Below, one piece after another: positions 3,223 to 54,077 of a stretch of DNA of 54,077 nt. The stretch comes from Verrucomicrobiota bacterium. Its GTDB lineage: Bacteria > Verrucomicrobiota > Verrucomicrobiia > Limisphaerales > UBA11358. Location: positions 1-54,077 of the forward strand of contig JBEKON010000009.1 of NCBI GenBank assembly GCA_049521735.1, read 5' to 3'. Numbering within the stretch: the stretch's first letter is position 1; each line of letters opens with the position of its first letter. Position numbers and translations under genes: made by a program. Under the pieces are notes generated by a model. That model saw nothing but the letters and a program-made list of their open reading frames with translations, was not told the origin of the DNA and ran no database searches.

Positions 3223-4014
3223 TTAGGGATTGTAAGTCAATGTTGTTTTTTTCTGGTTCAATTCGGCGGATAATACCACTTCGTTCTTGCTGATGGCAAC
3301 GATAATGTAATCATCACCCGCAAGTTTCAGAATGTCGTTAACGCGCTGGTCCTGCCAGCTTTTTCCTTCGGGAGCGTATTTCAAATCAGCCATGTAGCCA
3401 TCTACACGACGAAACGGCTTGTCTTTGGACAACATCGCCATCTCGCCAGTGTCTGTCAGCCGCAAAATCAATGGTGTGGGATTGTCGGGCGGGCCCTTCA
3501 CGCTGATAATGGTGAAAGCGTCGTTCTTATCACCAATTGAAGCGTAATGCTGCCGTTTGGCCCGCTGCCCCAATAATGACGCCGCTTGGCGTTCAACACC
3601 AATGATGTAGCGCGCGCCAAATTCATTCGTTTCCACCGAGACCAGCGTGAGTATGAAACACAACGGCGCGGTCTTGGTGATCACCACAGCCTGCGGACCA
3701 ACTTCCCTGCCGCTTTCAATCTTGATGGTAGAGCCATTCTTTGCTTTTTGCCATTCAACGGGATTGAAAAGTCTGTTGGTTGTCTCGAAGTCAAGCTTGT
3801 CGGGCGATTGCAGGCGCTGCATGACGTTGTCCTGCTCCGCCAAGTTCAGCGGCGGAAGCGGTTCGACCGCCCGTGAGGTGATCCCCTTTCGTGTAGCATC
3901 CAAAACATCACGGTCATGCCGTATCCAATACGGTAAAAACACCAACGCGCCGACCAAGCCCAGCAACACAACGCCGAGCAAAATCTTTTCGTAATGTTTT
4001 CTGACGAAATCCAT
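3223..4014 (-). CDS. Membrane-anchored protein of the pilus/secretin cluster (unknown function; PilP/Amuc_1099-like position)
   Basis: 263-aa ORF with an N-terminal TM helix (ILLGVVLLGLVGALVFLPYW). It is co-directional and tightly spaced between the PilO-position gene and the secretin gene. I can name no motif. Confidence 0.6.
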   Translation of the reverse strand: MDFVRKHYEKILLGVVLLGLVGALVFLPYWIRHDRDVLDATRKGITSRAVEPLPPLNLAEQDNVMQRLQSPDKLDFETTNRLFNPVEWQKAKNGSTIKIESGREVGPQAVVITKTAPLCFILTLVSVETNEFGARYIIGVERQAASLLGQRAKRQHYASIGDKNDAFTIISVKGPPDNPTPLILRLTDTGEMAMLSKDKPFRRVDGYMADLKYAPEGKSWQDQRVNDILKLAGDDYIIVAISKNEVVLSAELNQKKTTLTYNP

Positions 4015-4018
4015 GCGT

Positions 4019-4963
4019 TTAAATTCCCGGCAACAGTTCCACGACTTCGATCTTCATGGTGATGCTCAAGATATGTTCATCGAGCACCGTCTGCAATCCG
4101 CCCCGACCGGTGGGCGCGGACGGCGATTGATATGCCGGTTGATTGGGTGGCGCGTAAGGTGGAGGTTGGGTGCCCGTCGTCTCCCCGCCAGGGGGAGAAG
4201 CTGATGACGCAGTAGTTGTCGCCGCCGCCTGCACGCTAATGTCTTTCACGACGAATCCGTGCGGCGACGACGCAAAAATGGACAACGCGTTTGCCAAATC
4301 CTGACTGAAACAGCGGAAAGTCACTTCATATGGCGTAAAAATGGCGAGGTTGTTGGTGACGGTCGGCTCATTAAGATAATCCGATTGCGGGCCACGGGCA
4401 TCGTCATCCGAAACACGCACACGTTGAAGGCCGTCCAAAGAATTGATTTTGGCCGCATAAAGAATTTCTGAAATAGTTTTCACTGCGCCCAGTTGCTCGG
4501 CCAGCGGTCCAAGGCTGCCAGGCGCGAATTTCACCAACGTCCGCTCCGCTTCAAACGAGAAGCCGTATTGAGGCGGCAACGTGACGCTGGCGTTGCCGGC
4601 TTCATGTTGCAACTGGTCAATCGTCCGGCGCAGCGCGGCGGCAAATGCCTCACTGGTCACGACGTTGTTGGTTGGATTCGGAATGGGCGGGATCGGCTTA
4701 AAATATTGCTTCGCCTGCTGAATCCAATCGCGCAGTTGCTGTTCTTGTTCGCGGGCCGTTTGAATGTTATTGACATTATTGTTGCCTGGAGACGGTTTTT
4801 CATTGTTGATCGTTTGTAACGTCTTGTATGTCTTGTTCAATGCGTCCAAGGCCGTTTCATTCCGCTGCCAATTCCTAAATTCATAGACGCCAGCAGCCGC
4901 CAGCAACCCCACAGCCAAAGCGGTGCCGATGAAAAAAAACAAATTTCTCTTAATCCAAGTCAT
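4019..4963 (-). CDS. PilO-position, Amuc_1100-like membrane-anchored pilus-associated protein
   Basis: 314 aa. It has an N-terminal TM anchor (NLFFFIGTALAVGLLAAAGVY), a helical segment, and a Pro/Thr/Ala-rich linker near the C-terminus (TTTASSASPPGGETTGTQPPPYAPPNQPAYQSPSAP). It starts 1 nt after the stop of the PilMN ORF. Confidence 0.6.
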   Translation of the reverse strand: MTWIKRNLFFFIGTALAVGLLAAAGVYEFRNWQRNETALDALNKTYKTLQTINNEKPSPGNNNVNNIQTAREQEQQLRDWIQQAKQYFKPIPPIPNPTNNVVTSEAFAAALRRTIDQLQHEAGNASVTLPPQYGFSFEAERTLVKFAPGSLGPLAEQLGAVKTISEILYAAKINSLDGLQRVRVSDDDARGPQSDYLNEPTVTNNLAIFTPYEVTFRCFSQDLANALSIFASSPHGFVVKDISVQAAATTTASSASPPGGETTGTQPPPYAPPNQPAYQSPSAPTGRGGLQTVLDEHILSITMKIEVVELLPGI

Positions 4964-6969: not shown

Positions 6970-7248
6970 ATGAACCGTTGCCGCATGCACATTTTTTATT
7001 CAGGCCATGTGCAGGGTGTCGGTTTTCGTTACATAGCGAAAACCGTCGCCACGGGCTTTGAAGTCAGTGGCACGGTTCGGAATCTGTTCGACAGTCGCGT
7101 CGAATTGATTGCCGAGGGCCCGCGCGAGGAACTCGAAGCATTCCGCACGGCTGTTCGTAATGCCGGGCTTTCCAGTTTTATTCGCGATGAAAATGTAAAC
7201 TGGAGCGAAGCGCAAAACGAATTTCGCGGATTTGAAATTGTCCGATAA
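6970..7248 (+). CDS. acyP: Acylphosphatase
   Basis: ORF 6937..7248. FYSGHVQGVGFRY..VSGTVRNL..RVELIAEG is the acylphosphatase signature. I moved the start to the Met at 6970. Confidence 0.85.
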   Translation: MNRCRMHIFYSGHVQGVGFRYIAKTVATGFEVSGTVRNLFDSRVELIAEGPREELEAFRTAVRNAGLSSFIRDENVNWSEAQNEFRGFEIVR

Positions 7249-7251
7249 AAA

Positions 7252-7974
7252 ATGAAATACGCCATCATTGCTGACATACACGCCAATCTGGAGGCGTTTC
7301 AGGTCGTTTTGGACGATGCTCAAAAGCAGAAGGTCACGCACTATGCCTGCCTCGGCGACGTTGTCGGCTACAACGCCAATCCCAAGGAATGCCTCGACAT
7401 CGTCTGCAAAATGAACATCCCTTGCGTCAAAGGCAACCATGACGAATACTGCTCCACCGACGATCGGCTTGAAGGTTTCAACCCCGCCGCCGCCGAAGCC
7501 GTCCACTGGACGCGCGGACAGCTTTCCGACAAGGAACGCAAATGGCTGTGCGACCTTAAATACACCAAAATGGTCGCCAACTTCACCCTCGTCCACGCCA
7601 CGCTCGACGCGCCGGAACGCTGGGGTTATGTCTTCGATAAGCTTGCCGCAGCAGCCAGTTTTCCATACCAAAACACGCAAGTCTGTTTTTTTGGCCATAC
7701 GCACGTGCCGGTCGCCTTCATGCGCGACACCGTTGTGCGGGGCGGCACCTATTCCAAATTCAAAATTGACCCGGCCAAAAAATATTTCGTCAATGTCGGC
7801 GCCATCGGCCAGCCTCGCGACAATAACCCCAAGGCCGCCTATGTGGTTTATGACATGGACGAAGGCACTATTGAACTGCGCCGGCTTGAATATGACATCC
7901 CCGCCGCCCAGAAAAAAATTCGTGCCGCCGGTCTCCCTGAACGCCTCGCCGAACGGCTCGCTGTGGGAAGATAA
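7252..7974 (+). CDS. Metallophosphoesterase (calcineurin-like phosphoesterase family)
   Basis: Motifs MKYAIIADIHAN, GDVVGYNANP, KGNHD and FFGHTH are present in canonical order. Confidence 0.85.
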   Translation: MKYAIIADIHANLEAFQVVLDDAQKQKVTHYACLGDVVGYNANPKECLDIVCKMNIPCVKGNHDEYCSTDDRLEGFNPAAAEAVHWTRGQLSDKERKWLCDLKYTKMVANFTLVHATLDAPERWGYVFDKLAAAASFPYQNTQVCFFGHTHVPVAFMRDTVVRGGTYSKFKIDPAKKYFVNVGAIGQPRDNNPKAAYVVYDMDEGTIELRRLEYDIPAAQKKIRAAGLPERLAERLAVGR

Positions 7975-8015
7975 ACCAAACTCAATCTCCACAGGTAACG
8001 TCAACTGGCGCGGAA

Positions 8016-9089
8016 TTGAAAAAATGGCGGTATCCGGGTAATCTGGGGCTGAAAAACGAGTCTTTGAAAATTCTCATTCTCAAACCCAGCTCGCTCGGCG
8101 ACGTGGTGCAGGCGCTGTCCGTGCTTCGCCTCATCAAACGCCATCTGCCTGCGAGTGAAATTTTTTGGTGGATTAATTCCAACCTTGCATCACTGATCGA
8201 AGGGGATCCCGATTTGACCGGCATCGTCCGCTTCGAACGCAAACGCTGGGCCGCCCCCCGACACTGGCCGGAAATGTTCCGCAGTGTCCAATGGATGCGC
8301 GCGCAAAACTTCGATTGGGTCATTGACCTCCAATGCCTCGCGCGCAGTGGCGCGTTCGCGTGGCTTGCCAATGGAAAATTTCTCATCGGCCTCGATGAAT
8401 CCCGCGAAGGGGCTCGCGGATTGTACGACCTTGCCGTCCGCCGCCCATCGTTTTACACGCACGCCGTGGATTGGTATCTCGCCGTGCTGCCGCCGCTCGG
8501 TGTGCCAGTCCATAAAAATTTTCAATGGCTGCCCGAACACTCCGAAATCGCCGCCGCCGTCAAAGCCAAATGGCAAACCGACGGAGCGCGGTGGATTGCC
8601 CTTCAACCGGGCGCCCGCTGGGAAAACAAACGCTGGCCGGTTCAAAATTTCGCCGAACTCGTCCGCTTGCTCGCGGCAGGATTTCCAGACGTGCGCTTTG
8701 CCATTCTTGGTAATGACGATGACAAACCGCTCGGCAAAATCATCGCACGCGCCGAGCCGCGACGCTCCTTGAATTTGTGCGGACAGACTTCGTTGCCGGA
8801 AATGGTCGAATGGCTGCGGCTCTGCAAGCTGATGATTACAAACGACACCGGCCCGATGCACGTTGCCGCCGCGCTCGGCAAACCGCTCATTGCATTGTTC
8901 GGCCCGACTGAACCGCGGCGCACCGGTCCTTACGGTCAGCTCGAAAACGTTTTGCGAATCAATCTCCCCTGCTCTCCCTGCCTGAAATCGCATTGCACCT
9001 ACGAAAAGCCGAATGAGTGCCTGAAAGCGATTTCGCCCGCGATGGTTTTTGAAAGCGCATGCGAAAAACTTGCGGCACTGCCGGGTTAA
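8016..9089 (+). CDS. Glycosyltransferase family 9 (LPS heptosyltransferase-like)
   Basis: ILILKPSSLGDVVQALSVL near the N-terminus and ITNDTGPMHVAAALGKPLIALFGPT near the C-terminus are typical of GT9. Confidence 0.85.
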   Translation: MKKWRYPGNLGLKNESLKILILKPSSLGDVVQALSVLRLIKRHLPASEIFWWINSNLASLIEGDPDLTGIVRFERKRWAAPRHWPEMFRSVQWMRAQNFDWVIDLQCLARSGAFAWLANGKFLIGLDESREGARGLYDLAVRRPSFYTHAVDWYLAVLPPLGVPVHKNFQWLPEHSEIAAAVKAKWQTDGARWIALQPGARWENKRWPVQNFAELVRLLAAGFPDVRFAILGNDDDKPLGKIIARAEPRRSLNLCGQTSLPEMVEWLRLCKLMITNDTGPMHVAAALGKPLIALFGPTEPRRTGPYGQLENVLRINLPCSPCLKSHCTYEKPNECLKAISPAMVFESACEKLAALPG

Positions 9090-9110
9090 GCGGGCTTGCG
9101 TTTTGAGTGA

Positions 9111-9817
9111 GTGCGGCATTACGTTTGCGCAGTGGGCACTTCACGTCAAACCGTTCCAGGATCCACTTCGACTGACGGCGAACCGCTGCTCCGGCCCGCA
9201 TTTGTCACAACCCGCTGGTCGGTGGTACTGGCGGCCGGTCGCAGCGACACCCCGCACGCACGCGCGGCGCTGGAGAAACTCTGCCAGGCCTATTGGTATC
9301 CACTCTATGCCTACGTGCGGCGGCGCGGACATTCGCCGGAGGACGCCCAGGACCTGACGCAAACATTTTTCACGCGACTGCTGGAGCGGAATTGGGTGGG
9401 TAATGCCGACCAGCAGAAGGGGCGGTTCCGATCCTTCCTGTTGTCGGCCATGAATCATTTTCTTGCCGACGAATGGGACAAGGCGCGGGCGCAGAAACGC
9501 GGCGGCGGTGTGCCGCCCGTGCCGCTGCAATTCGACACGGCGGAAACCCGTTACGGCCATGAACCGGTTGACAACATCACGCCGGAACAAAGCTACGAAC
9601 GGCGCTGGGTCCCTGTCTGGTCGGTGAGCGCACCGCCCAACCTTACGCCGAATTGGGCGCAAAGCTCGGCGTCAGCGAGGGCACGGTGAAGGCCGCCGTG
9701 CACCGTCTGCGCCAGCGTTACCGCCAGTTGCTGCGGGACGAAATTGCCCAGACGGTGGCCGAACCGGGCGAAGTGGACGAGGAATTGCACCACCTGTTCG
9801 CCGTGCTGGCGGGGTGA
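9111..9817 (+). pseudogene. ECF-type sigma-70 family factor (kinase-associated type), reading frame broken between region 2 and region 4
   Basis: Frame 0 reads TTRWSVVLAAG..YWYPLYAYVRRRGHSPEDAQDLTQTFF..RFRSFLL..QKRGGG..EQSYERRW, then nonsense to a TGA at 9689. Frame +2 from 9602 reads ALGPCLVGERTAQPYAELGAKLGVSEGTVKAAVHRLRQRYRQLLRDEIAQTVAEPGEVDEELHHLFAVLAG* (stop 9815-9817), which is a sigma region-4 HTH. Confidence 0.7.
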
Positions 9818-16954: not shown

Positions 16955-17356
16955 TCAGCCTTCGGCGGAAGAAAGCGATAATTTTGCACTTTCCGCCACT
17001 ACAGCCACACAACCCGTTCGCCGATGCAAAGCGTTCCAGATTTCCAACAACACGCCTTCACGGTTGTTTCGCCATTGATGGTTCCAAAAGCGTAATTCTT
17101 CGACATCCTCTGAGGTTAGAAATTTTTCACGCTCCTCGTCACGCTGGCGTTGCTCCGGAAGCCCATGCTGGAACCCATCCAGTTCGATGGATAACTTTGC
17201 GGTGGGACAATAGAAGTCGAGAAAGTATTTCCCCAACGGATGCTGGCGGCGGAATTTGAATCCCACAAAGCGTCCCGCCCGCAGGGCGCGCCACAATTCC
17301 TTTTCTTCGTCGGTCTGTTCACAACGGAGACGGCGGGCATTGCTTGTGGCATTCAT
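16955..17356 (-). CDS. DUF559 (Vsr-like) endonuclease domain protein
   Basis: RRLR...T.EE..LW..LR......KFRRQHP.G.Y.LDFYC....L.IELDG..H...E.R..D..R...L is the typical DUF559 pattern. Confidence 0.85.
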   Translation of the reverse strand: MNATSNARRLRCEQTDEEKELWRALRAGRFVGFKFRRQHPLGKYFLDFYCPTAKLSIELDGFQHGLPEQRQRDEEREKFLTSEDVEELRFWNHQWRNNREGVLLEIWNALHRRTGCVAVVAESAKLSLSSAEG

Positions 17357-17390
17357 AGACGCAGCGTAGATGATAATTTTTTATAGGCAA

Positions 17391-17440
17391 CCCCTCTCCC
17401 TGGCCCTCTTCCCCGCGCTGCGCTGCGAGGAGAGGGAATG
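17391..17440. repeat. REP-like element family A (forward orientation, diverged loop)
   Basis: cccctctccctggccctcttccccgcgctgcgctgcgaggagagggaatg. Confidence 0.75.
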
Positions 17441-17502
17441 AACTCTTCATTTCGGTTGTTCAACCGCCCGCACTCGACAGCCCGCCTTCCGGTTGTTAGC
17501 GT

Positions 17503-18462
17503 TTGGCCATGAATTTTCTGGTCACCGGCGGCGCGGGCTTTATCGGCTCGCACGTTTGCGAGCGTCTGCTGCGCGACGGCCACGCGGTCTGGGCGTTCGA
17601 CGACCTCAACAACTTTTACGATCCGCAACTCAAGCGCCAGAATCTGCGGGAAATCCAATCGCTCGCCAAACCGTTTGAATTCGTTCATGGCGATTTGACC
17701 AACCGCGCCGCGCTCGACGCCCTGTTTGGCAGCGTGAAGTTCGATCAAGTCATTCACCTCGCCGCGCGCGCCGGGGTGCGGCCGAGCCTCCAAAACCCGG
17801 CCCTTTACCAGCGCGTCAACGTGGAAGGCACGGTCAATGTGCTCGAAGCCGCGCGAAAAAATCGCGTCAAAAAAATCATCATCGCCTCGTCGTCGTCGGT
17901 TTACGGCGTGAATTCCAAAGTGCCGTTCAGCGAAAGCGACCCGGTTTTTTCCGCCATTTCGCCCTATGCCGCGAGCAAGCTTGCCTGCGAAGCGCTCGGC
18001 CATGTTTATCACCACGTTTATGGCATGGACGTGGCGGTGCTCCGTTTGTTCACCGTTTACGGCCCGCGTCAGCGACCCGACCTGGCCATCCGCAAATTCG
18101 CGACGCTCATTCACGCCAGCAAACCGATTCCGGTCTTTGGCGATGGCAGCATGGAGCGCGATTATACCTACATCACCGACACGCTTGACGGCATCATCGC
18201 CTGCACAAAAAAGGAATTCAGCTACGAAATTTTCAACCTCGGCGAATCGCAAACCGTGAAGCTGACCCGCCTCATTGAATTGCTTGAAACCGCGCTCGGC
18301 AAAAAAGCCGTGATTGACCGCCAGCCGGTCCAACCCGGCGATGTGCCCGTCACGTTCGCCGACATCTCGAAGGCGCGCGCCAGACTCGGTTACAATCCGC
18401 AGGTCAAAATCGAGCAGGGCATCCTGCAATTTGTGAATTGGTTTCGCCAGGGCCATTGTTAA
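17503..18462 (+). CDS. NAD-dependent sugar-nucleotide epimerase/dehydratase (UDP-glucuronate 4-epimerase-like)
   Basis: FLVTGGAGFIGSH Rossmann motif and YAASKLACE catalytic YxxxK. 319 aa. Substrate assignment is tentative. Confidence 0.85.
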   Translation: MAMNFLVTGGAGFIGSHVCERLLRDGHAVWAFDDLNNFYDPQLKRQNLREIQSLAKPFEFVHGDLTNRAALDALFGSVKFDQVIHLAARAGVRPSLQNPALYQRVNVEGTVNVLEAARKNRVKKIIIASSSSVYGVNSKVPFSESDPVFSAISPYAASKLACEALGHVYHHVYGMDVAVLRLFTVYGPRQRPDLAIRKFATLIHASKPIPVFGDGSMERDYTYITDTLDGIIACTKKEFSYEIFNLGESQTVKLTRLIELLETALGKKAVIDRQPVQPGDVPVTFADISKARARLGYNPQVKIEQGILQFVNWFRQGHC

Positions 18463-18472
18463 TACTGTCGTC

Positions 18473-19066
18473 ATGAACCCATCCACGCCGCCCAATCGTC
18501 CAACCCTGACCGAAGCTCTTGACGCCTGGAAAAAACTGCTGGCCGAGCGCGGCCTTTCGACCGACCTGCTCTGGATTTTTGAGGAAAACCTTTGCTTCGA
18601 AAAAGAGCGCGGTGCACAGGGCGGTTTTCATTTGGGCTTTCAAACCAAATTCACGACACCCCCCGAGGACGCGCTCGATATCGCGTTCGACCATTTCTCC
18701 GAATCCGGCGCGCGCATTGTGTTTTACCGGCTCGGTCACGCCAGGCGGGATGGCGGCCGATCCGTCTGCGCTTTGCTGTGCGACAGGTGGTTCGACGCAA
18801 AGGACGCAAGCGAAGGCTATCTGCACCGGAACGAATGGCACATGTCATTTCATCCCGGCCTCGACAAGGAAATCGAGGAAATCACCGACTTAAGCCGCTG
18901 GCTGCGGCGAGTCAAACGCGGGCGCGGCTTTCACGACCTTGATTTCTGCATGACGCTCGCCATGATTGACGAAATCAAAACCTACGGCCGCCCGCTTGCG
19001 CCCTACGAACACTTCGCCAAGACGATGCTCAACCGCCTGCGCCGGTTTCTGGGGCAACCCACTTGA
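18473..19066 (+). CDS. Hypothetical protein
   Basis: 197-aa ORF starting 10 nt after the epimerase gene. It has coding-like composition but no motif I recognise. Confidence 0.5.
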   Translation: MNPSTPPNRPTLTEALDAWKKLLAERGLSTDLLWIFEENLCFEKERGAQGGFHLGFQTKFTTPPEDALDIAFDHFSESGARIVFYRLGHARRDGGRSVCALLCDRWFDAKDASEGYLHRNEWHMSFHPGLDKEIEEITDLSRWLRRVKRGRGFHDLDFCMTLAMIDEIKTYGRPLAPYEHFAKTMLNRLRRFLGQPT

Positions 19067-39821: not shown

Positions 39822-39927
39822 TTGTCCACGCCGCTTTGTCCGGGTGGAATCCCGCCTTCGCGGCTTGCTTCCGCCTTCATTGCATTTCGGCGTGACGAGT
39901 CGGCGTGGGCTGTGGCTAACTACCCGT

Positions 39928-40230
39928 ATGAACAAGTCCATGCCTTCGCTATTCCAGAGCGTGTGCCTGCGATTGGCGGATGATGTGACCTTTCAATCGC
40001 TGGGACCCGGTGAGGAAACGGTCGTGCTCTCGCTCAACTCCGGCTATCTATATACCTGCAATGAAACTACTGCCGCCTTTTTGCGGGGACTGGACGGCAA
40101 ACAATCACTGGCCGCGGTGATTGACTCGCTCTTTAACGAGTTTCAGGTTTCCCGGGCAACGTTGAGCAAGGACATGACGGCATTAGCAGCAAAGCTGCTG
40201 GAGGAGAAACTCCTCGTTGAAGAACCCTGA
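39928..40230 (+). CDS. PqqD-family RiPP recognition element (lasso B1-like)
   Basis: Internal Met of ORF 39844..40230. ..LADDVTFQSLGPGEETVVLSLNSGYLYTCNETTAAFLRGLDGKQSLAAVIDSLFNEFQVSRATLSKDMTALAAKLLEEKLL is the PqqD pattern. Confidence 0.8.
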   Translation: MNKSMPSLFQSVCLRLADDVTFQSLGPGEETVVLSLNSGYLYTCNETTAAFLRGLDGKQSLAAVIDSLFNEFQVSRATLSKDMTALAAKLLEEKLLVEEP

Positions 40231-40648
40231 ACATACATTTTACGCAGGCCGGCTGCTGTTGCGCGGGCATATCTGGCTGCTGGCAACGCTGATTCCGTTG
40301 CTGGAAAAAATCCTCCCCTTAAAATACTTATTGCGTCTGTTGACACCGCCGCCACGTTTCAAACCCTATGGCGGCATGCTCCCGGAAGAAATCTCCCGGT
40401 GGGTTGCCCACCGATTGCGTCAGCCGCGAAATATGCGCCGGCGCGCCTGCCTGCGGCATGGGCTGACTTTGTTCCACTTCCTAAGGCTGGCGGGCTGCCC
40501 GGCGGTTCTGCACATTGGAGTTTTCCCGCCGCAGTTTGACAGTCGGCGGATGCACGCGCATTGCTGGGTGACCCTCAACGGCGTCTGTTTGATCCCGCCG
40601 CCCGAACAGCCGGCAGCAACTCTCCTGACTTACTGCCCGGCGGAATAA
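40217..40648 (+). CDS. Lasso-peptide B2-type leader protease (transglutaminase-core cysteine protease)
   Basis: 143 aa with a TTG start overlapping the PqqD gene by 14 nt. RRACLRHGLTLFHFLRLAGCPAVLHIGV.......MHAHCWV fits the B2 Cys...His pattern. Confidence 0.8.
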   Translation: MKNPEHTFYAGRLLLRGHIWLLATLIPLLEKILPLKYLLRLLTPPPRFKPYGGMLPEEISRWVAHRLRQPRNMRRRACLRHGLTLFHFLRLAGCPAVLHIGVFPPQFDSRRMHAHCWVTLNGVCLIPPPEQPAATLLTYCPAE

Positions 40649-40766: not shown

Positions 40767-40904
40767 GTGAAAACATCAAAAAAACAAACCTTGCCGGAAA
40801 ACAAGAAACAGAAACGCGATTACGTCAAACCGGAGATCAAAAAGCGCGAACAGATCAAGGAAGTCACAGAACAACAAGGCCCCGGGCCCGTCACTGTGGA
40901 GTAG
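40767..40904 (+). CDS. RiPP precursor 1 (leader + core QQGPGPVTVE)
   Basis: GTG start. (M)KTSKKQTLPENKKQKRDYVKPEIKKREQIKEVTE|QQGPGPVTVE. It is the 3' part of track ORF 40683..40904. Confidence 0.7.
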   Translation: MKTSKKQTLPENKKQKRDYVKPEIKKREQIKEVTEQQGPGPVTVE

Positions 40905-40913
40905 AAATGTCAT

Positions 40914-41045
40914 ATGAAAACATCAAAAAAACAAACCCCGCCGGAAAACAAGAAACAGAAACGCGACTACGTTAAACCGGAGATCAAAAAGCGCGAACAA
41001 ATCAAGGAAATCACAGAACAACCAACCCCCGGAACCGTCTTTTGA
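40914..41045 (+). CDS. RiPP precursor 2 (core QPTPGTVF)
   Basis: Own translation: MKTSKKQTPPENKKQKRDYVKPEIKKREQIKEITE|QPTPGTVF*. 43 aa, below the track cutoff. Confidence 0.7.
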   Translation: MKTSKKQTPPENKKQKRDYVKPEIKKREQIKEITEQPTPGTVF

Positions 41046-41059
41046 CATCGAAATACCAT

Positions 41060-41527
41060 ATGAAAACATCAAAAAAACAAACCCCGCCGGAAAACAAGAA
41101 ACAGAAACGCGACTACGCCCCGCCGGAGATCAAAAAGCGCGAACAAATCAAGGAAACCACGGAAGGCACGCCTCCGGTCATCACGCCAGTACTCATATCG
41201 GATCGCAACGCCAAGAAAAACTTCCAATCAGTGGATACCGTGGCCGTGCTGGAAAAGCTGGCTGCCATTCCCGTTGAACGGTGGAATTACAAATGGGAGA
41301 AGGACGGCGATGTGCCGCATCTTGGCCCGATGGCGCAGGATTTCAAAGGCGCGTTTTATCCCGGTCGCGATGACAAGAGCATCAGCACCTTGGAATTCCA
41401 TGGCGTGGAACTGGCGGCGATCCAGGGGTTGAATCAGAAACTGGAAGAAAAGGATGCGGAAATTCAGGCGCTCAAGCAGAGTGTTGCCGAACTCAAACAA
41501 CTGGTTTCGCAGTTGACCCAAAATTAA
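41060..41527 (+). CDS. RiPP precursor 3 fused to a peptidase-S74 intramolecular-chaperone (self-cleaving) domain
   Basis: MKTSKKQTPPENKKQKRDYAPPEIKKREQIKETTE|GTPPVITPVLI|SDRNAKKNFQSVDTVAVLEKLAAIPVERWNYKW....HLGPMAQDFKGAF...LAAIQGLNQKLEEKDAEIQALK. The tail matches the SDxxxK..I...W.YK..GxIAQ.. coiled-coil S74 pattern. Confidence 0.75.
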   Translation: MKTSKKQTPPENKKQKRDYAPPEIKKREQIKETTEGTPPVITPVLISDRNAKKNFQSVDTVAVLEKLAAIPVERWNYKWEKDGDVPHLGPMAQDFKGAFYPGRDDKSISTLEFHGVELAAIQGLNQKLEEKDAEIQALKQSVAELKQLVSQLTQN

Positions 41528-41532
41528 ATTGT

Positions 41533-41670
41533 ATGAAAACATCAAAAAAAGAAACCCTGCCAGAGAATAAAAGGCGGAAGCGGGACTACGCCCAGCCGGA
41601 GATTAAAAAGCGCGAACAGATCAAGGAAGTGACGGAAGGCGGTGGCCCGGTTGTCACAACAAAGGACTGA
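41533..41670 (+). CDS. RiPP precursor 4 (core GGGPVVTTKD)
   Basis: Own translation: MKTSKKETLPENKRRKRDYAQPEIKKREQIKEVTE|GGGPVVTTKD*. Confidence 0.7.
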   Translation: MKTSKKETLPENKRRKRDYAQPEIKKREQIKEVTEGGGPVVTTKD

Positions 41671-41675
41671 ATATA

Positions 41676-41819
41676 ATGAAAACGCCGAAAGAACAAACCC
41701 AGCCGGAGACCGAGAAACAGAAGCGCGACTACGTCAAACCGGACATCAAAAAACGCGAACAAATCAGGGAAGTCACGGAAGGCGACGAAGTGTTTGTCAC
41801 AACAGAGACCAAAAGATAA
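41676..41819 (+). CDS. RiPP precursor 5 (core GDEVFVTTETKR)
   Basis: Own translation: MKTPKEQTQPETEKQKRDYVKPDIKKREQIREVTE|GDEVFVTTETKR*. Confidence 0.7.
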   Translation: MKTPKEQTQPETEKQKRDYVKPDIKKREQIREVTEGDEVFVTTETKR

Positions 41820-41956
41820 TGAAAACATCGGAAAATCAAACCCCGACGGAAAACAAGGAACAGAAGCGCAACTACGTCCAGCCGGAGATCAAAAAGCGCG
41901 AACAGATCAAGGAAATCACGGAAGGCCCGGGCCCAGTCGTCACTGCTACAGGGTAG
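41819..41956 (+). CDS. RiPP precursor 6 (core GPGPVVTATG)
   Basis: The ATG overlaps the stop of precursor 5 (TAATG). MKTSENQTPTENKEQKRNYVQPEIKKREQIKEITE|GPGPVVTATG*. It is the 3' part of track ORF 41642..41956. Confidence 0.7.
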   Translation: MKTSENQTPTENKEQKRNYVQPEIKKREQIKEITEGPGPVVTATG

Positions 41957-41965
41957 AAATATCAT

Positions 41966-42103
41966 ATGAAAACATCCAAAGAACAAACCCAGCCGGAAAT
42001 CAAGAAACAGAAACGCGACTACGCCCCGCCGGAGATCAAAAAGCGCGAACAGATCAAGGAAGTCACAGAATTCCCCTTATTGATCGTTACTCCCGAGAAG
42101 TAA
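41966..42103 (+). CDS. RiPP precursor 7 (core FPLLIVTPEK)
   Basis: Own translation: MKTSKEQTQPEIKKQKRDYAPPEIKKREQIKEVTE|FPLLIVTPEK*. Confidence 0.7.
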   Translation: MKTSKEQTQPEIKKQKRDYAPPEIKKREQIKEVTEFPLLIVTPEK

Positions 42104-42112
42104 AAATACTTC

Positions 42113-42256
42113 ATGAAAACATCCAAAAAACAAACCCAGCCGGAAAACAAGGAACAGAAACGCGACTACGCCCCGCCGGAGATCAAAAAGCGCGAACAAA
42201 TCCGGGAAGTGACGGAAGGCAGTGGCCCAAGCGTCACAACCAAACCGCCGCCGTAA
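42113..42256 (+). CDS. RiPP precursor 8 (core GSGPSVTTKPPP)
   Basis: Own translation: MKTSKKQTQPENKEQKRDYAPPEIKKREQIREVTE|GSGPSVTTKPPP*. Confidence 0.7.
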   Translation: MKTSKKQTQPENKEQKRDYAPPEIKKREQIREVTEGSGPSVTTKPPP

Positions 42257-42381
42257 AGACTTGCAAGCGGTCAACAAAAGACGCTTGTCAGAGCCGTTAG
42301 ATTTCCATCCTTGAGTAGCCGGCTGGTTGCAGCCGGCAAAAACGTTGTTTTCTCGTTCTTGTTTATCCCCTCGAATCAACC

Positions 42382-43371
42382 ATGAGTCCGGCGAAAACAC
42401 ATTACGACTTGCACGGCATGCGAATGACGGTGGAAGCGCCGAGTCAATCGCTGCTGGATGTGATTCATGTGCTTCTGGGCGCTTACGCAGATTCCGGCAA
42501 CGGTGCGGACGGATTCCATGTGAGTCTGGATTACGGGCAGCCACGGCAAAAAGCCGACCCGGGTTTGCATAAATTTTGGACGGGCACACTGCCCAGTGGC
42601 ACCCGGATGATTTGCCGCAGTGGTCCGAACCGGCGGCAGATTGAGATACCGGACCATGTCTGCGCTGACATTGATCTGGCCAAACGCATTGCCAGGATCG
42701 TTGTGAGTCCAGACAACAAAGCCGGCCTGCTGGAAACCTGTTTCCTGCCGTTGCTATGCGATTGTCTCGGGTTGAACGGCCATCATGTGATCCATGCCGC
42801 CAGTCTGTTCGTTCAGGCCGGTGGCCAGCGACGTGCGCTCATCTTCTCGGGCATGAGCGGTCGCGGAAAAACCACACTGGCGCTGGCACTGGCCGGGGCG
42901 GGTCTGGGCATGCTGGCTGACGACATGACTTTTTACCAGGCCGCGACCGCGAACCGGCCGGGACAAATCTGGGGAATCCGAATCCGCTGCAAGGTGCATT
43001 CACGAACGCTTGAGTTGCTCCCCTGGCTGCAAGATTTTCCCATGGGCAGCGTCAGTTCGAATGGCGAGCGGCTTCTGGATATACGGTCATTGAAACCACA
43101 GACAGCCGGTCTGATGGCATCACCGGGATTGATCCTTTTTCTGAATCCGCGAAATGCGGAGTCCCACCAGATTGAGCCGGTGGACAAGGTCACGGCGCTG
43201 ACACGATTGACTCGGGAAAACGTCCGGGCGCTCGATCAGCGCCGCGAGGCCGTGGCAGGCCGGGCCTTTGGAGCGCTGGCGGAGTTGGTGCGTTCCAGCC
43301 GGACTTTCCAAGTCAGCCTCTGCCCGCGTCTGGAAGAATTGCCAGAGCAACTCGCTTCCCTGTGGTCATGA
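42382..43371 (+). CDS. HPr-kinase-like P-loop protein (lasso-cluster-type peptide kinase homologue)
   Basis: HVIHAASLFVQAGGQRRALIFSGMSGRGKTTLALALAGAGLGMLADDMTF matches the HAsav..G.a.lf.G.SG.GKSTLA....G...L.DD pattern of HPrK-related kinases. Confidence 0.7.
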   Translation: MSPAKTHYDLHGMRMTVEAPSQSLLDVIHVLLGAYADSGNGADGFHVSLDYGQPRQKADPGLHKFWTGTLPSGTRMICRSGPNRRQIEIPDHVCADIDLAKRIARIVVSPDNKAGLLETCFLPLLCDCLGLNGHHVIHAASLFVQAGGQRRALIFSGMSGRGKTTLALALAGAGLGMLADDMTFYQAATANRPGQIWGIRIRCKVHSRTLELLPWLQDFPMGSVSSNGERLLDIRSLKPQTAGLMASPGLILFLNPRNAESHQIEPVDKVTALTRLTRENVRALDQRREAVAGRAFGALAELVRSSRTFQVSLCPRLEELPEQLASLWS

Positions 43372-50886: not shown

Positions 50887-51315
50887 GGGTTGAGGGCACG
50901 CTAAAACGGAGCGTCCGTTTTTTCAAGCCCTTCTGCACGTTTGTGCGCTTTTTTCAAATGTTTTTGCAAAACTAACAAAGTGTAATAGCTTTCTTTTGCA
51001 CAACATCGATGCTAGCTTGAACCCGTGGTTCACACTAAATGTGAACGCGCAAGAGTTGTGATGGGTTTTGTTCATGCTTGTGTGCCGTTGTCCGGACTGG
51101 TGATGGATGGCGGCGGCGTTTGTGGTCTCCGCATCATGAACAAAATGAATGTCCTAATATATAAATATAAAGCTAAAAAACAACTTGCAAGTTGGTAAAA
51201 TGTTACATAACATATTATGCATACTATGAAAAGAACCTCTTTAATTCATGATGGCAGTTCCAGCCCGCAAAAGGCCGGAGACAAAGGTCATTCACCCTCA
51301 CCCTATTTAACTTTT

Positions 51316-54077
51316 ATGAAAAAATTACTTAAAAATCAGTGGATAACATTGTCACTTCTCTTGGCCGCTGCACCACTCACAGCGACGGCGGCGGGAAATG
51401 CCTTTAGTTTCATCGACAATTTCAACTCCGGCAGCACTGTTAACAGCGGTGTTGCAGTAGACCCTAGCACCATCACCAGCACTTCCACCAGTTATCAGAC
51501 GTATAATGGTCTCGCTGGCGGTTTTTGGAGCATGAGTGCGAATGACCTTATGTTCGGCACAACCAACACCAGCAGCATGTTGATCGAAGTCCTTGCTTTG
51601 TTCACCAATACACCGGTCCCGCTGACAGCGCCAGGTGATTACATCGCTCTCCAGGTGGTCTTTGTGAACACGAGCAATATCCTTAGCAGCATTGCCGGGG
51701 GCGAGGCGGGTAATGCCAGCCTAAACATCGGCTTGTTCGATTCCGGCGGAGTCCCGCCCAATCTAGGTAACATGACGACGAGCGCAGGCTCCGCAACTGA
51801 TGGAACGCAGAATTGGCTTGGTTACTTTGGCCGAATCTTCTATAACAGCAAGCCGGACTGTCAAGCCCGTTCCGCCCAGACAGCCAACGGGTCGACATCG
51901 CAGAACCAGGATTTGCTCTTCTCGGGTGCCAGCGCCACCCAATCGTTCAACAGTCCCAATGGCACAGTTCTTGGCTCTGCCGATCCGACTAGAGCTGTCA
52001 CCCTTACGAATGGTCAAACTTACACGCTGCTATTTACGATCGCCTACAATTCGCCAGGTGTTCTCAACGTCAGCAATGCTCTTTTCGCCGGGACGGGCAC
52101 TGGCGGCGGAGTGATCTTAGCCCTGACAAATCGTCTGGCAACAAATGCAACCTATGTGACAGGTGGGTTTGATGGTTTTGCCATCGGTTGGCGCAGTGCA
52201 TCCAGTTCGTCACAGTACAGCACGATGGATATTTCTTCCATCCAGATTTCCGGCATAAGCACCCCTGTCACCTCACCCCCACTCATTACTACAGAACCAC
52301 TTTCAGCGACCGTCGGGACCAACGGTTCCTGCGCCTTCTTTGTTACAACCGTCGGTTTCGGTCAGCACTATCAATGGTATCGGAACGGCATCCAGATGGT
52401 TAATGGCGGCAATATTTCGGGTGCCACCAAGAGCATGCTCGTTATTTCCCCGGCGGGAGACAGTGATCAGGCTACGAGCGTCAATGGTTACTCCGTCATA
52501 ATCACCGGCACCGGTGGTTACACCACAAATTCAGTGACCAACTCGCTGGCTTTGGTGGCGGCAACAAATTTAATCTATAATGGGGATGGTGGCCCCACAT
52601 GGGATTTGAATACCACTACCAGTTGGCAGACCGCCGGCAATGCCAATGATCTCGCTTTCAATTTCGGTGACTCCGTCACTTTCAATGATGTCGGGTTCGG
52701 CTCAGGAGGCTTGACATTGACAGGTCCGTATCTTAGCGCTGCTTCCTGTACGGTGGCCGGTCATTTCACTTACGTCTTCGCATCCACGAGCGCCGGCAGC
52801 TTCGCCGGTCCGGGCGGTTTGCTTTACACAGGTACCGGTGGTTTAGAAATAGACAATGCCAATACCTACACCGGTGGCACCGTTATCAGCAATAACACTG
52901 GCACTTTTAAAGTCGGAAATCTCAAGGCTCTTGGCACCGGCCCGGTGACCAATGCCTTGGCGGGCGACTTTATGGAAATTACTGTGGCTGGCAGCGCAAG
53001 CTCAAGCATGCCCAACGATTTCGTTATTGCCACCAACCTCACCATTCAGTTTGATGCCACCGGAACTTACGCCGGAGACTTCAGCGGCAATTTCTACGGC
53101 AACCCTGGCGCAAAACTGACATTTACTGCGCCCGACGCCAACAGCCCTACCAACGAGCGGGTCCGGTTTTATGGCACCAACACAACGTATAATGGGAACT
53201 TGGTGCTTAGTAATTCCTTGATCATCCTAGCTCCCTATGAGGGATCCGGCTTCACCCAAACCTATAACGGCGTCATCTCCGGCCTCGGGGCGATCATCCA
53301 ACGAGGCAGCGGCACTACGATTCTCAACGGCACAAATACCTATTCTGGTGGCACTTCACCTACCGACGGTGCCATTGGATTCGGCATTGATAGTTATCCT
53401 ACCGTGGGGACCGTTATTACTAACGGCCCGATTGGCACTAACGCGTTGCTTCTCACTCCCGAAGTTGGCGAGTTGACCGGCAACGGCCAAGTGTTCGCCT
53501 ACGGCGGCGCCCGCACCATCGGGAATTTAATTCGATATCCGAGTGGAACAAACAACTTAACGTTGATCATCGGTGGCACGAACGACCTGACGTTTTCAGG
53601 TGCGTGCAACCTTGCTGGCCTCGACGGTTTGGGCACCAATAACATCCGGACTCTCCAAGTGACCAATATCGGCGTGACCACCTTCTCGGGTGTCATCAGC
53701 GACACTACTAATGGTAATAGTTCTGGCTGTGGTTTGTCGATAACCGGTACCAGCACCAACATTAGCGGCCCGTTGGTTCTGAGCAACACCGAGACCTACA
53801 CAGGGCCGACGACCATCACCAACCACACCACACTCCGGGTCAACGGCTCGCTTAACGCGGCGAGTGCCGTCACGGTGAACTCGAATGCGACTCTCGCGGG
53901 CACCGGCACCATCAACGGCCCGGTCACCGTCAATGCCGGCGGCACTCTCTCCCCTGGCGCCTCCATCGGCACGATTACCCTCAGCGGCGGTCTCACCTTG
54001 AAGGGCAACCTGTTCTTCGAAATCAACACGTCGGTATCACCGTCCAATGACTACGCGGTGGTCACCGGCACACTGAC
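51316..54077 (+). CDS. Giant surface protein with an Ig-like domain and autotransporter-associated beta-strand (PATR) repeats; 3' end outside window
   Basis: Own translation shows frame 1 open from the ATG at 51316 to the window end (>920 aa). It has signal peptide MKKLLKNQWITLSLLLAAAPLTATAAG and repeated NTYTGGT / NTYSGGT / ETYTGPTTI / G.GTL motifs. It is absent from the track because it has no stop. Confidence 0.8.
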   Translation, partial: MKKLLKNQWITLSLLLAAAPLTATAAGNAFSFIDNFNSGSTVNSGVAVDPSTITSTSTSYQTYNGLAGGFWSMSANDLMFGTTNTSSMLIEVLALFTNTPVPLTAPGDYIALQVVFVNTSNILSSIAGGEAGNASLNIGLFDSGGVPPNLGNMTTSAGSATDGTQNWLGYFGRIFYNSKPDCQARSAQTANGSTSQNQDLLFSGASATQSFNSPNGTVLGSADPTRAVTLTNGQTYTLLFTIAYNSPGVLNVSNALFAGTGTGGGVILALTNRLATNATYVTGGFDGFAIGWRSASSSSQYSTMDISSIQISGISTPVTSPPLITTEPLSATVGTNGSCAFFVTTVGFGQHYQWYRNGIQMVNGGNISGATKSMLVISPAGDSDQATSVNGYSVIITGTGGYTTNSVTNSLALVAATNLIYNGDGGPTWDLNTTTSWQTAGNANDLAFNFGDSVTFNDVGFGSGGLTLTGPYLSAASCTVAGHFTYVFASTSAGSFAGPGGLLYTGTGGLEIDNANTYTGGTVISNNTGTFKVGNLKALGTGPVTNALAGDFMEITVAGSASSSMPNDFVIATNLTIQFDATGTYAGDFSGNFYGNPGAKLTFTAPDANSPTNERVRFYGTNTTYNGNLVLSNSLIILAPYEGSGFTQTYNGVISGLGAIIQRGSGTTILNGTNTYSGGTSPTDGAIGFGIDSYPTVGTVITNGPIGTNALLLTPEVGELTGNGQVFAYGGARTIGNLIRYPSGTNNLTLIIGGTNDLTFSGACNLAGLDGLGTNNIRTLQVTNIGVTTFSGVISDTTNGNSSGCGLSITGTSTNISGPLVLSNTETYTGPTTITNHTTLRVNGSLNAASAVTVNSNATLAGTGTINGPVTVNAGGTLSPGASIGTITLSGGLTLKGNLFFEINTSVSPSNDYAVVTGTL

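Follow-up and report, generated by a model that had tools for sequence, protein, structure and literature searches.

The closest described relatives of the locus that we report here are the lasso peptide clusters of the split-B type. In lasso precursors a YxxPxL motif spans leader positions -17 to -12 and the penultimate leader residue is Thr, and in one such system the kinase BsfK phosphorylates an internal Ser (Ser3) of the precursor, faster when BsfB1 is present (PMC10368454). In another, PsmK and PsmN together put a phospho-hexose on Ser, PsmN requiring a DxD motif (PMC6993621; PMC9266682). Our subject is a stretch of 54,077 nucleotides from a Verrucomicrobiota bacterium (assembly GCA_049521735.1, contig JBEKON010000009.1), hereafter the window, in which eight tandem precursor genes for what appear to be peptides that are ribosomally synthesised and modified post-translationally (RiPPs) form part of an operon that reads, in order, PqqD/B1, B2, the eight precursors, a kinase of the HprK/PEPCK fold, an NTP_transf_5 nucleotidyltransferase (NTase) and a B12-binding radical S-adenosylmethionine (SAM) enzyme. 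We think it probable that this is a cyclase-less RiPP operon, which has kept the leader-recognition and leader-removal half of lasso biosynthesis, the ring-forming half having been lost or never present, and which makes modified peptides. Because the operon lacks a lasso cyclase, the most likely product is a modified linear peptide, of a kind that would be widespread and undescribed.

An array of eight coding precursor genes

The eight open reading frames (ORFs) are real, coding and conserved. They lie head to tail on the forward strand between positions 40767 and 42256 and encode 45, 43, 155, 45, 47, 45, 45 and 47 amino acids (Table 1), with a period of 147 nt detected over the array by Tandem Repeats Finder (77-89% matches, scores 612-814). 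An original prediction, made from this DNA alone, had listed the same ORFs and lengths, a unit recurring every 140-150 nt or so, a GTG start for copy 1 and a TAATG overlap of copies 5 and 6, and all of these are borne out: the GTG is present, with an ATG at the same position in orthologue P0015, and copies 5 and 6 share one base. The regularity of the array and its homologue matches are far beyond chance. A profile of the eight precursors matches 108 proteins at E values of 2e-23 to 3e-9, mostly of 41-47 aa, with about ten of 50-82 aa for which an upstream start was called and two that are truncated; from these matches and their lengths it follows that frame and stop position are conserved. 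Those that carry a taxon name come from metagenome-assembled genomes (MAGs) of Verrucomicrobiota, the group in which the prediction had proposed to search for the leader, and the frame is kept in every locus examined, whereas loss of frame at homologous loci had been named as evidence against coding. Many homologues are already annotated as 'hypothetical protein' by NCBI or JGI, and the expectation that standard annotation would miss such ORFs was therefore largely wrong, although some are missed, as are two of the three precursor ORFs of one relative, L009.

Nei-Gojobori counts over all 28 pairs of window precursors, with the core taken as its first eight codons, give proportions of synonymous (pS) and nonsynonymous (pN) differences of 0.33 and 0.09 in the leader (pN/pS 0.28) and of 0.65 and 0.57 in the core (pN/pS 0.87). 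Purifying selection acts on the leader and not on the core, so that the comparison of substitution in the two parts, which the prediction had proposed, separates a constrained leader from a diversified core. Positive selection on the core was considered and is not claimed, core pS being near saturation and pN/pS below one.

The array is lower in GC than the adjacent genes (47-51% against about 54-64%) and strongly favours A over T (AT skew about 0.6), because the leader is rich in Lys, Glu and Gln. Spacers between precursors are 0-14 nt long and show no Shine-Dalgarno-like sequence, and several of them have AAATRTCAT ahead of the ATG in common, which suggests that translation of the array is initiated by coupling or independently of a Shine-Dalgarno sequence. 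Short, A-rich units without such a site would also fit non-coding repeats, or N-terminal fragments decaying after duplication of a Peptidase_S74 gene. The chance of this we regard as vanishingly small, and the idea is already contradicted by the data: more than 130 unique homologues share the frame, the stop position and the leader motif, the leader has the low pN/pS given above, and homologues occur at loci without any S74 gene (L001, L007 and L009-L019).

Between precursor 8 and the kinase gene, at 42318-42337, there is a hairpin rich in GC, GCCGGCUG-GUUG-CAGCCGGC, with a T-rich stretch after it. It could attenuate read-through; its folding is no better than that of shuffled sequences (z = -1.05), the terminator scan made no call there, and across the window the promoter and terminator scan returned counts equal to those of shuffled controls.

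What had been called an invariant leader of 35 residues is less uniform than that, with 19 of 35 columns invariant among the window precursors and a mean amino-acid identity of 80% (minimum 63%), its second half, DYxxPEIKKREQIKExTE, being nearly fixed. We placed the putative leader/core junction after the conserved T-E, because the lasso YxxPxL/Thr rule and a sharp drop in conservation past T-E both point there, and counted positions back from it. Across 132 unique leader/core pairs, obtained by adding the S74 fusions to the profile homologues, Tyr(-17) and Pro(-14) are present in all 132, Ile, Leu or Val(-12) in 129, Thr(-2) in 128 and Glu(-1) in 131. The predicted spacing of Tyr -17, Pro -14, Ile -12 and Thr -2 is thus correct, holds across the family and agrees with the YxxPxL...T spacing of lasso leaders (PMC10368454). 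Leaders of the distant clades are shorter and have the canonical Leu at -12, as in MKTKKPYSPPTLQKRDKLSDMTQ|GDPPITSGARDGNA and KKPYVEPTLEKCEKLIEITE|GRAVVVSGVAPQV. Their identification as precursor genes of RiPP type, with a lasso-type leader, also agrees with their position directly downstream of a protein with a PqqD-type RiPP recognition element (RRE) and a lasso-type B2 protease.

The cores are variable, as had been claimed, without diverging completely, since a G-x-x-P-(V/I)-V-(T/S) scaffold and a bias towards Val, Thr, Pro and Gly are common to them. In length the 98 unique cores span 8-13 residues, with a mode of 10-11. Gly stands at position 1 in 61% of them, the same share as in the Lys-rich clade, and in 22 of the 28 distant precursors; Pro stands at position 4 in 55%, and Val, Ile or Thr at positions 5-6, while 64% of all core residues are Val, Thr, Pro or Gly. 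Ser or Thr occupies position 7 in 75% of unique cores (79% of the Lys-rich clade) and lies at positions 6-8 in 27 of 28 distant-clade cores. This conserved hydroxyl residue, overlooked by the prediction, is the core's most informative feature, and as an internal Ser/Thr it is a candidate phosphate acceptor. With a near-fixed leader, 98 unique cores and arrays of several copies in relatives, the family shows what defines a diversifying multi-precursor RiPP library.

The resemblance to lasso peptides stops at leader recognition and cleavage, because a cyclase is lacking and most cores have no ring acceptor. No Asn_synthase (lasso cyclase) domain was found among the scanned large ORFs of the window, and about 20 related, independent loci from several phyla are without an Asn_synthase gene within 8-10 kb of the cassette. 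Asp or Glu at positions 7-9, where the lasso acceptor stands, occurs in just 12 of the 98 unique cores, in 4 of the 28 from distant clades and in two of the eight from the window (5 and 7 only). The precursors, on both the cyclase and the acceptor test, are by their sequences not lasso peptides, and the earlier lasso-type reading stands for the leader, B1 and B2 and falls short beyond them. It may be argued that they are genuine lasso peptides whose cyclase is encoded elsewhere in the genome, given that leader motif, B1 and B2 are of lasso type and that the visible part of the genome is 54 kb; we consider this very improbable, in view of the rare acceptor, the cyclase-free surroundings of so many loci, and cores which at 8-12 residues would leave little or no threading tail.

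Table 1. Positions of the precursor genes, the S74 domain and the predicted leader-processing and modification genes in the window.
Feature	Position	Strand	Basis or remarks	Profile-search protein
B1, PqqD-family RRE (predicted leader-binding chaperone)	39844..40230	+	PF05402 43.8 bits vs cut-off 23.4	
B2, lasso-type transglutaminase-like Cys protease (predicted leader peptidase)	40217..40648	+	NF033537 lasso_biosyn_B2 49.2 bits vs cut-off 33; Pfam Transglut_core3	
Precursor 1	40767..40904	+	GTG start; core QQGPGPVTVE	P0012
Precursor 2	40914..41045	+	core QPTPGTVF	P0010
Precursor 3	41060..41527	+	leader, core GTPPVITPVLI and C-terminal Peptidase_S74 / intramolecular-chaperone autoprocessing domain	
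S74 domain of precursor 3, residues 47-155 (109 residues)	41198..41527	+	PF13884 45.7 bits vs cut-off 22	
Precursor 4	41533..41670	+	core GGGPVVTTKD	P0002
Precursor 5	41676..41819	+	core GDEVFVTTETKR	P0013
Precursor 6	41819..41956	+	core GPGPVVTATG; start overlaps precursor 5 stop (TAATG)	P0004
Precursor 7	41966..42103	+	core FPLLIVTPEK	P0006
Precursor 8	42113..42256	+	core GSGPSVTTKPPP	P0001
HprK/PEPCK-superfamily P-loop kinase-like protein, 329 aa, predicted peptide Ser/Thr kinase	42382..43371	+	fold, motifs, BsfK similarity	
NTP_transf_5 nucleotidyltransferase-fold protein, 339 aa	43362..44381	+	PF14907 122 bits vs cut-off 31.2	
Class B (B12-binding) radical SAM enzyme, 487 aa	44378..45841	+	PF02310 and PF04055, both above cut-offs	

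Enzymes of the cassette and the proposed pathway

The enzymes of the cassette seem functional. B1 and B2 have the make-up of a lasso leader-processing pair, a PqqD-type RRE and a transglutaminase-like Cys protease. B1 is similar to the characterised BsfB1 (BLASTP E=3e-10), its matches to the lasso PqqD models of NCBIfam being weak and below cut-offs, and its start should probably be placed at the ATG at 39928 or 39940, since homologues have a length of 96-98 aa. The catalytic Cys and His of B2 are invariant across 12 family members and BsfB2. The reading frames of B1 and B2 overlap by 14 nt and those of kinase and NTase by 10 nt, the overlaps of the three pairs B1/B2, kinase/NTase and NTase/radical SAM ranging over 4-14 nt.

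HprK belongs to the PEP carboxykinase (PEPCK) fold superfamily. The kinase-like protein has no Pfam match; its AlphaFold2 model (predicted local distance difference test, pLDDT, 89) matches PEPCK in Foldseek with E=6.5e-9 and probability 1.0. It carries the P-loop GMSGRGKTT at residue 157 and LADD at 178, with GxSGxGKTT and LADD invariant across 33 relatives, and it is similar to BsfK over 71 residues at this P-loop/LADD core (BLASTP E=3e-6). An exhaustive profile search puts 230 cluster representatives (50% identity) in its clade at E≤1e-30 and reaches 1,463 at E≤1e-10. The NTase has a KG...DVD motif that resembles the DxD needed by PsmN. A literature mention of its family, PF14907, in phosphonate clusters was set aside as concerning an unrelated system, and so was a fosfazinomycin preprint. 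The radical SAM enzyme has its CxxxCxxC motif as CSHRCSFC at residue 215; among solved structures AprD4, TokK and TsrM come nearest to it, and it stays below the cut-off of every NCBIfam equivalog. Single-sequence searches of the PDB with the kinase, B2 and the NTase returned chance matches only.

The pathway that we infer extends to every chemical step, the residue modified, the order of events, the S74 self-cleavage of precursor 3 and whatever biological role the products have. B1 would bind the Y(-17)xxP(-14)x[I/L](-12) motif of all eight precursors and present the disordered core to the HprK-like kinase, which would O-phosphorylate the Ser or Thr at about core position 7. The NTP_transf_5 enzyme would then extend this phosphate with a sugar or nucleotidyl group, and the B12-radical-SAM enzyme would add a further modification, most likely C-methylation of the Val/Ile/Thr/Pro-rich core or, alternatively, radical chemistry on the appended sugar. 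B2 would cut after T(-2)-E(-1), and a linear, modified peptide with a length of only 8-12 residues would be set free. In this way the tandem array would be a natural library of cores processed by a single set of enzymes. We propose the kinase step at Ser/Thr7 because BsfK offers a precedent on an internal Ser with the help of BsfB1, and the NTase step because of the PsmN-dependent hexose on phospho-Ser; by this analogy a phospho-modification at Ser/Thr7 is probable.

Several observations weigh against this pathway. The kinase appears from its sequence to be only distantly related to the characterised lasso kinases, the similarity to BsfK being local, and it scores 33.6 and 22.9 bits against TIGR04352 and TIGR04355, whose cut-offs are 200. 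Its relatives in L012 (38.1 bits) and L018 (26.4 bits) likewise fall below the 200-bit cut-off for HprK-related kinases, and for this reason we treat the kinase as a separate clade. Known lasso kinases mostly act on a C-terminal Ser, absent from these cores, whose C-termini are V, G, T, D and others with no conserved Ser. The best family matches of the radical SAM enzyme (HpnJ, BchE, ApyD, PhpK and AprD4) carry out differing reactions; the third catalytic position of B2 is Asn/Asp-like, with no strictly conserved Asp; and no conserved exporter or immunity gene is found in the cassette, nor any exporter beside it in the window.

The position of the conserved hydroxyl invites another reading, in which a macrocycle is formed between the N-terminus and residue 7 without a lasso cyclase. 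The kinase and/or NTase would activate Ser/Thr7, and the residue 1 amine freed by B2 would attack, either after elimination to dehydroalanine or dehydrobutyrine (Dha/Dhb) or by direct displacement, to give a seven-residue ring with a secondary amine in place of the lasso isopeptide. The hydroxyl at position 7 (6-8) does fall inside the 7-9 window of the lasso Asp/Glu acceptor, residue 1 is commonly Gly both in the Lys-rich clade and in the distant precursors, and the machinery is otherwise lasso-derived, short of the cyclase alone. Against this, nothing in the cassette is a candidate lyase or cyclase, a bulky residue (F, V, Q, Y or R) often stands first in the core, the known kinase and NTase pair decorates its residue and does not activate it, and we know of no precedent for such secondary-amine ring chemistry. 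The residue position is tempting; nothing else supports such a ring, and we consider it unlikely.

It is also conceivable, if improbable, that B1 and B2 alone process the peptides, leaving them linear and unmodified, while the kinase-like protein, the NTP_transf_5 protein and the radical SAM enzyme act on some other substrate, such as a sugar or an envelope component. The cassette in the window is flanked by housekeeping and carbohydrate genes (GH28, glmS, kdsB and CTP synthase), and enzymes that modify sugars or lipids (HpnJ, AprD4) are among the best family matches of the radical SAM enzyme. However, these flanking genes are not kept from one locus to the next, whereas the five enzyme genes and the precursors stay together across phyla in unrelated neighbourhoods, with overlapping reading frames, and in lasso clusters the kinase and NTase pair has been shown to modify peptides. 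We therefore prefer decoration of the cores by the cassette's own enzymes, as set out above.

In the window as a whole, Rfam and tRNA scans found nothing, and PADLOC gave no defence-system match except a generic radical SAM one. Sizeable ORFs without a Pfam match lie at 51211-54075 (+), 17353-18495 (-), 3223-4963 (-) and 7000-9119 (-); one of them is open for at least 955 aa and runs off the window end.

The Peptidase_S74 fusion of precursor 3

Precursor 3 continues beyond its core, and the domain that the prediction had added to this copy in passing is indeed present without being incidental: it is a conserved Peptidase_S74 fusion. Residues 47-98 correspond to positions 1-52 of the PF13884 profile, so that the domain starts exactly at SDRNAK, and it ends in a coiled coil, while residues 1-47 are predicted to be disordered. 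S74 and intramolecular chaperone autoprocessing (ICA) domains undergo trimerisation-dependent autoproteolysis via a conserved Ser and a conserved Lys (PMC11058221). The corresponding dyad here is Ser47/Lys52 (Ser-x4-Lys); in 50 sequences Lys52 does not vary and the conservation of Ser47 is 90% or more. In endosialidases, S74 cleavage takes place immediately N-terminal to the catalytic Ser, and a cut N-terminal to Ser47 would release a leader-core of normal length. We suggest that the S74 domain trimerises and self-cleaves at this dyad, leaving an 11-residue core, which would give the same core length as in the other precursors by another route.

The distribution of the fusion is regular. There are about 45 full-length homologues of it; in 42 fusions the domain is nearly identical while 18 different cores precede it, 14 of them of 11 residues, in keeping with the 10-11 residue mode of stand-alone precursors. 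Each of five independent loci has a single fusion in its array, beside short precursors, and the fusion is absent from loci with one or two precursors and from all distant clades. Its nearest relatives outside RiPP precursors, 65-83% identical in the S74 domain, are 'tail fiber domain' proteins of Verrucomicrobiota, whose repeats, of beta-helix or YadA-like type, end in ...TSWxx[ILV]|SDRNAKKN; the domain was probably captured from this family. The family is a large set of Verrucomicrobiota paralogues (P0155-P0228) that combine a C-terminal domain 65-83% identical to that of copy 3 with diverse beta-helix or YadA-like N-termini, and in two of its members (P0172 and P0181) Cys replaces the nucleophilic Ser (CDRNAKKN).

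Self-cleavage of precursor 3 must be weighed against some contrary evidence. The monomer model of the domain has a mean pLDDT of 64; its top fold match in the PDB, the ICA domain of MyRF, has a non-significant E of 2.3, and fold matches in a viral library are not significant either. PDB searches with the sequence of the fusion gave chance matches, and those with an S74 profile gave nothing. Since the fold searches are not significant, the S74 assignment leans on Pfam and the conserved dyad. In addition, S74 cleavage normally follows the folding of an upstream trimeric beta-helix, and what lies upstream in precursor 3 is a disordered stretch of 46 residues. In the literature accessible to our search, outside which most subscription journals fell, we found no description of an S74 domain fused to a RiPP precursor.

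Related loci and comparison with known systems

The same gene order is found in the close relatives L001-L008, L037 and L038, with 1-9 precursors, and the same cassette recurs at 42-47% kinase identity in L009 and L010; array sizes across loci are 1, 2, 3, 5, 8, 8, 8 and 9 copies. GTDB genomes with the cassette include a Phycisphaerae locus with eight precursors (L012), other Verrucomicrobiota (L014 and L016) and a deltaproteobacterial MAG with three precursors (L017). Two Planctomycetota contigs carry parts of it, one with B1, B2, eight precursors and the start of the kinase (L019), the other with three precursors, kinase and radical SAM enzyme without an NTase (L013). The matches listed from the genome-collection scan contain no close Verrucomicrobiota relatives (best 49% identity) and are not a measure of the family's species distribution.

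Variants keep B1, B2, kinase and NTase and swap the extra enzyme. In L011 the four genes are contiguous and a formyltransferase takes the place of the B12-radical-SAM enzyme; in L018, L020 (Mesorhizobium sp. KR2-14, ANAO-SY3R2; NZ_CP159955 for the latter strain), L022 and L023 they are contiguous as well, in a cassette without B12-radical-SAM. A candidate 32-aa precursor lies downstream in L018 (12279-12377), and the Mesorhizobium strains, being cultured, are experimentally accessible. The Acidobacteriota variants L024 and L025 (Thermoanaerobaculia MAGs) carry a SPASM radical SAM enzyme. In both, a 24-aa peptide with the same leader grammar and a three-residue core, MKKTYRKPSLRRLGLLRQITR|FSF (L024 8789-8863, L025 7469-7543), stands directly upstream of B1, B2 and kinase, and L024 has NTP_transf_5 after these and the SPASM radical SAM gene upstream, a search for a cyclase finding none.

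Some loci show further features. Two cassettes are decaying: in L001 (12255-15104) an insertion sequence with a DDE transposase splits the B12-radical-SAM gene, and in L006 (10510-13972) the kinase and radical SAM genes are in fragments. Just downstream of the radical SAM gene, on the opposite strand, L009 (13716-15851, -) and L012 (13554-15695, -) have a fused ABC_membrane and ABC_tran transporter of about 711 aa, which could be an exporter and is absent from the window and its close relatives. A few kilobases downstream of the cassette, the two distant Verrucomicrobiota loci L014 (15647-17323) and L016 (15948-17027) have a second gene for a B12-binding radical SAM enzyme, together with a sigma-54 activator.

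On these grounds we put forward, as possible rather than probable, a new and phylogenetically broad RiPP class. It would be built on a B1-B2-kinase-NTase module, joined here by the B12-radical-SAM enzyme, with lasso-type leader processing and no cyclase; its class-defining modification, a phospho-linked decoration or a cyclase-independent ring from the N-terminus to residue 7, would fall on the conserved Ser/Thr7; and in the Verrucomicrobiota branch it would have recruited an S74 follower on one precursor per array. RiPP logic and the lasso-derived parts are already known; what appears to be new is the class-level architecture and the precursor format, and in the literature accessible to us, which left out most subscription journals, we found no description of the cassette or of cyclase-less B1/B2 clusters of this type. 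If the proposal is correct, the B1/B2 leader-processing parts of lasso biosynthesis would prove modular and re-used outside lasso peptides, and genome mining would gain a new class-defining gene set, the 230 clusters of the kinase clade being all unnamed and lying in poorly studied phyla (Verrucomicrobiota, Planctomycetota/Phycisphaerae and others). Since the arrays are core libraries that vary about a single fixed anchor, their enzymes probably accept a variety of substrates, a property that could serve peptide engineering. The S74 fusion would be the first case of an autoproteolytic trimerising domain used in the maturation of a RiPP precursor, and a new means of defining the C-terminus of a peptide, and it would place a domain known from phage fibres and MYRF in a new cellular role.

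With the split-B lasso systems (paeninodin with PadeK, pseudomycoidin with PsmK/PsmN, and Bradymonas with BsfK/BsfB1/BsfB2) the cassette shares a leader with YxxPx(L/I) from -17 to -12 and with Thr in position -2, a B1 of PqqD type, a transglutaminase-like B2 that has its Cys and His, and an HprK-family kinase together with an uncharacterised nucleotidyltransferase. It differs from lasso systems in having neither the Asn-synthetase-like cyclase (C) nor a conserved ABC exporter (D), in adding the B12-radical-SAM enzyme, in the distinct clade of its kinase and in its precursors, of which there are up to nine per operon where lasso clusters usually have one. The HprK-related kinase A/B systems (TIGR04352/TIGR04355) have in common with it an HprK-like P-loop kinase beside a PqqD-family protein, and they are, as far as we know, functionally uncharacterised.

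The C-methyltransferases of proteusins and bottromycins are class B radical SAM enzymes that tailor RiPPs. The window enzyme shares with such enzymes, among them ApyD, a B12-binding domain and a radical SAM domain with CxxxCxxC, and Val, Ile, Thr and Pro, in which the cores of this family are rich, are residues that C-methylation typically targets; in contrast to them, it lies below the cut-off of every curated equivalog, and its nearest structure is the diol dehydratase AprD4. The S74/ICA domains of phage endosialidases, tail fibres and MYRF are alike in the S-x4-K dyad (SDRNAK) at the start of the domain and in the terminal coiled coil; their cargo is a trimeric beta-helix, whereas that of precursor 3 is a disordered RiPP leader and core of 46 residues.

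Prochlorosins and other class II lanthipeptides, like cyanobactin cassettes, use one set of enzymes on many precursors with a conserved leader and hypervariable cores, selection being purifying on the leader and relaxed or diversifying on the core. The array described here has the same logic with unrelated enzymology, and sets itself apart from prochlorosins and cyanobactins by a tight tandem arrangement inside the operon and by keeping the Ser/Thr7 anchor in its otherwise variable cores.

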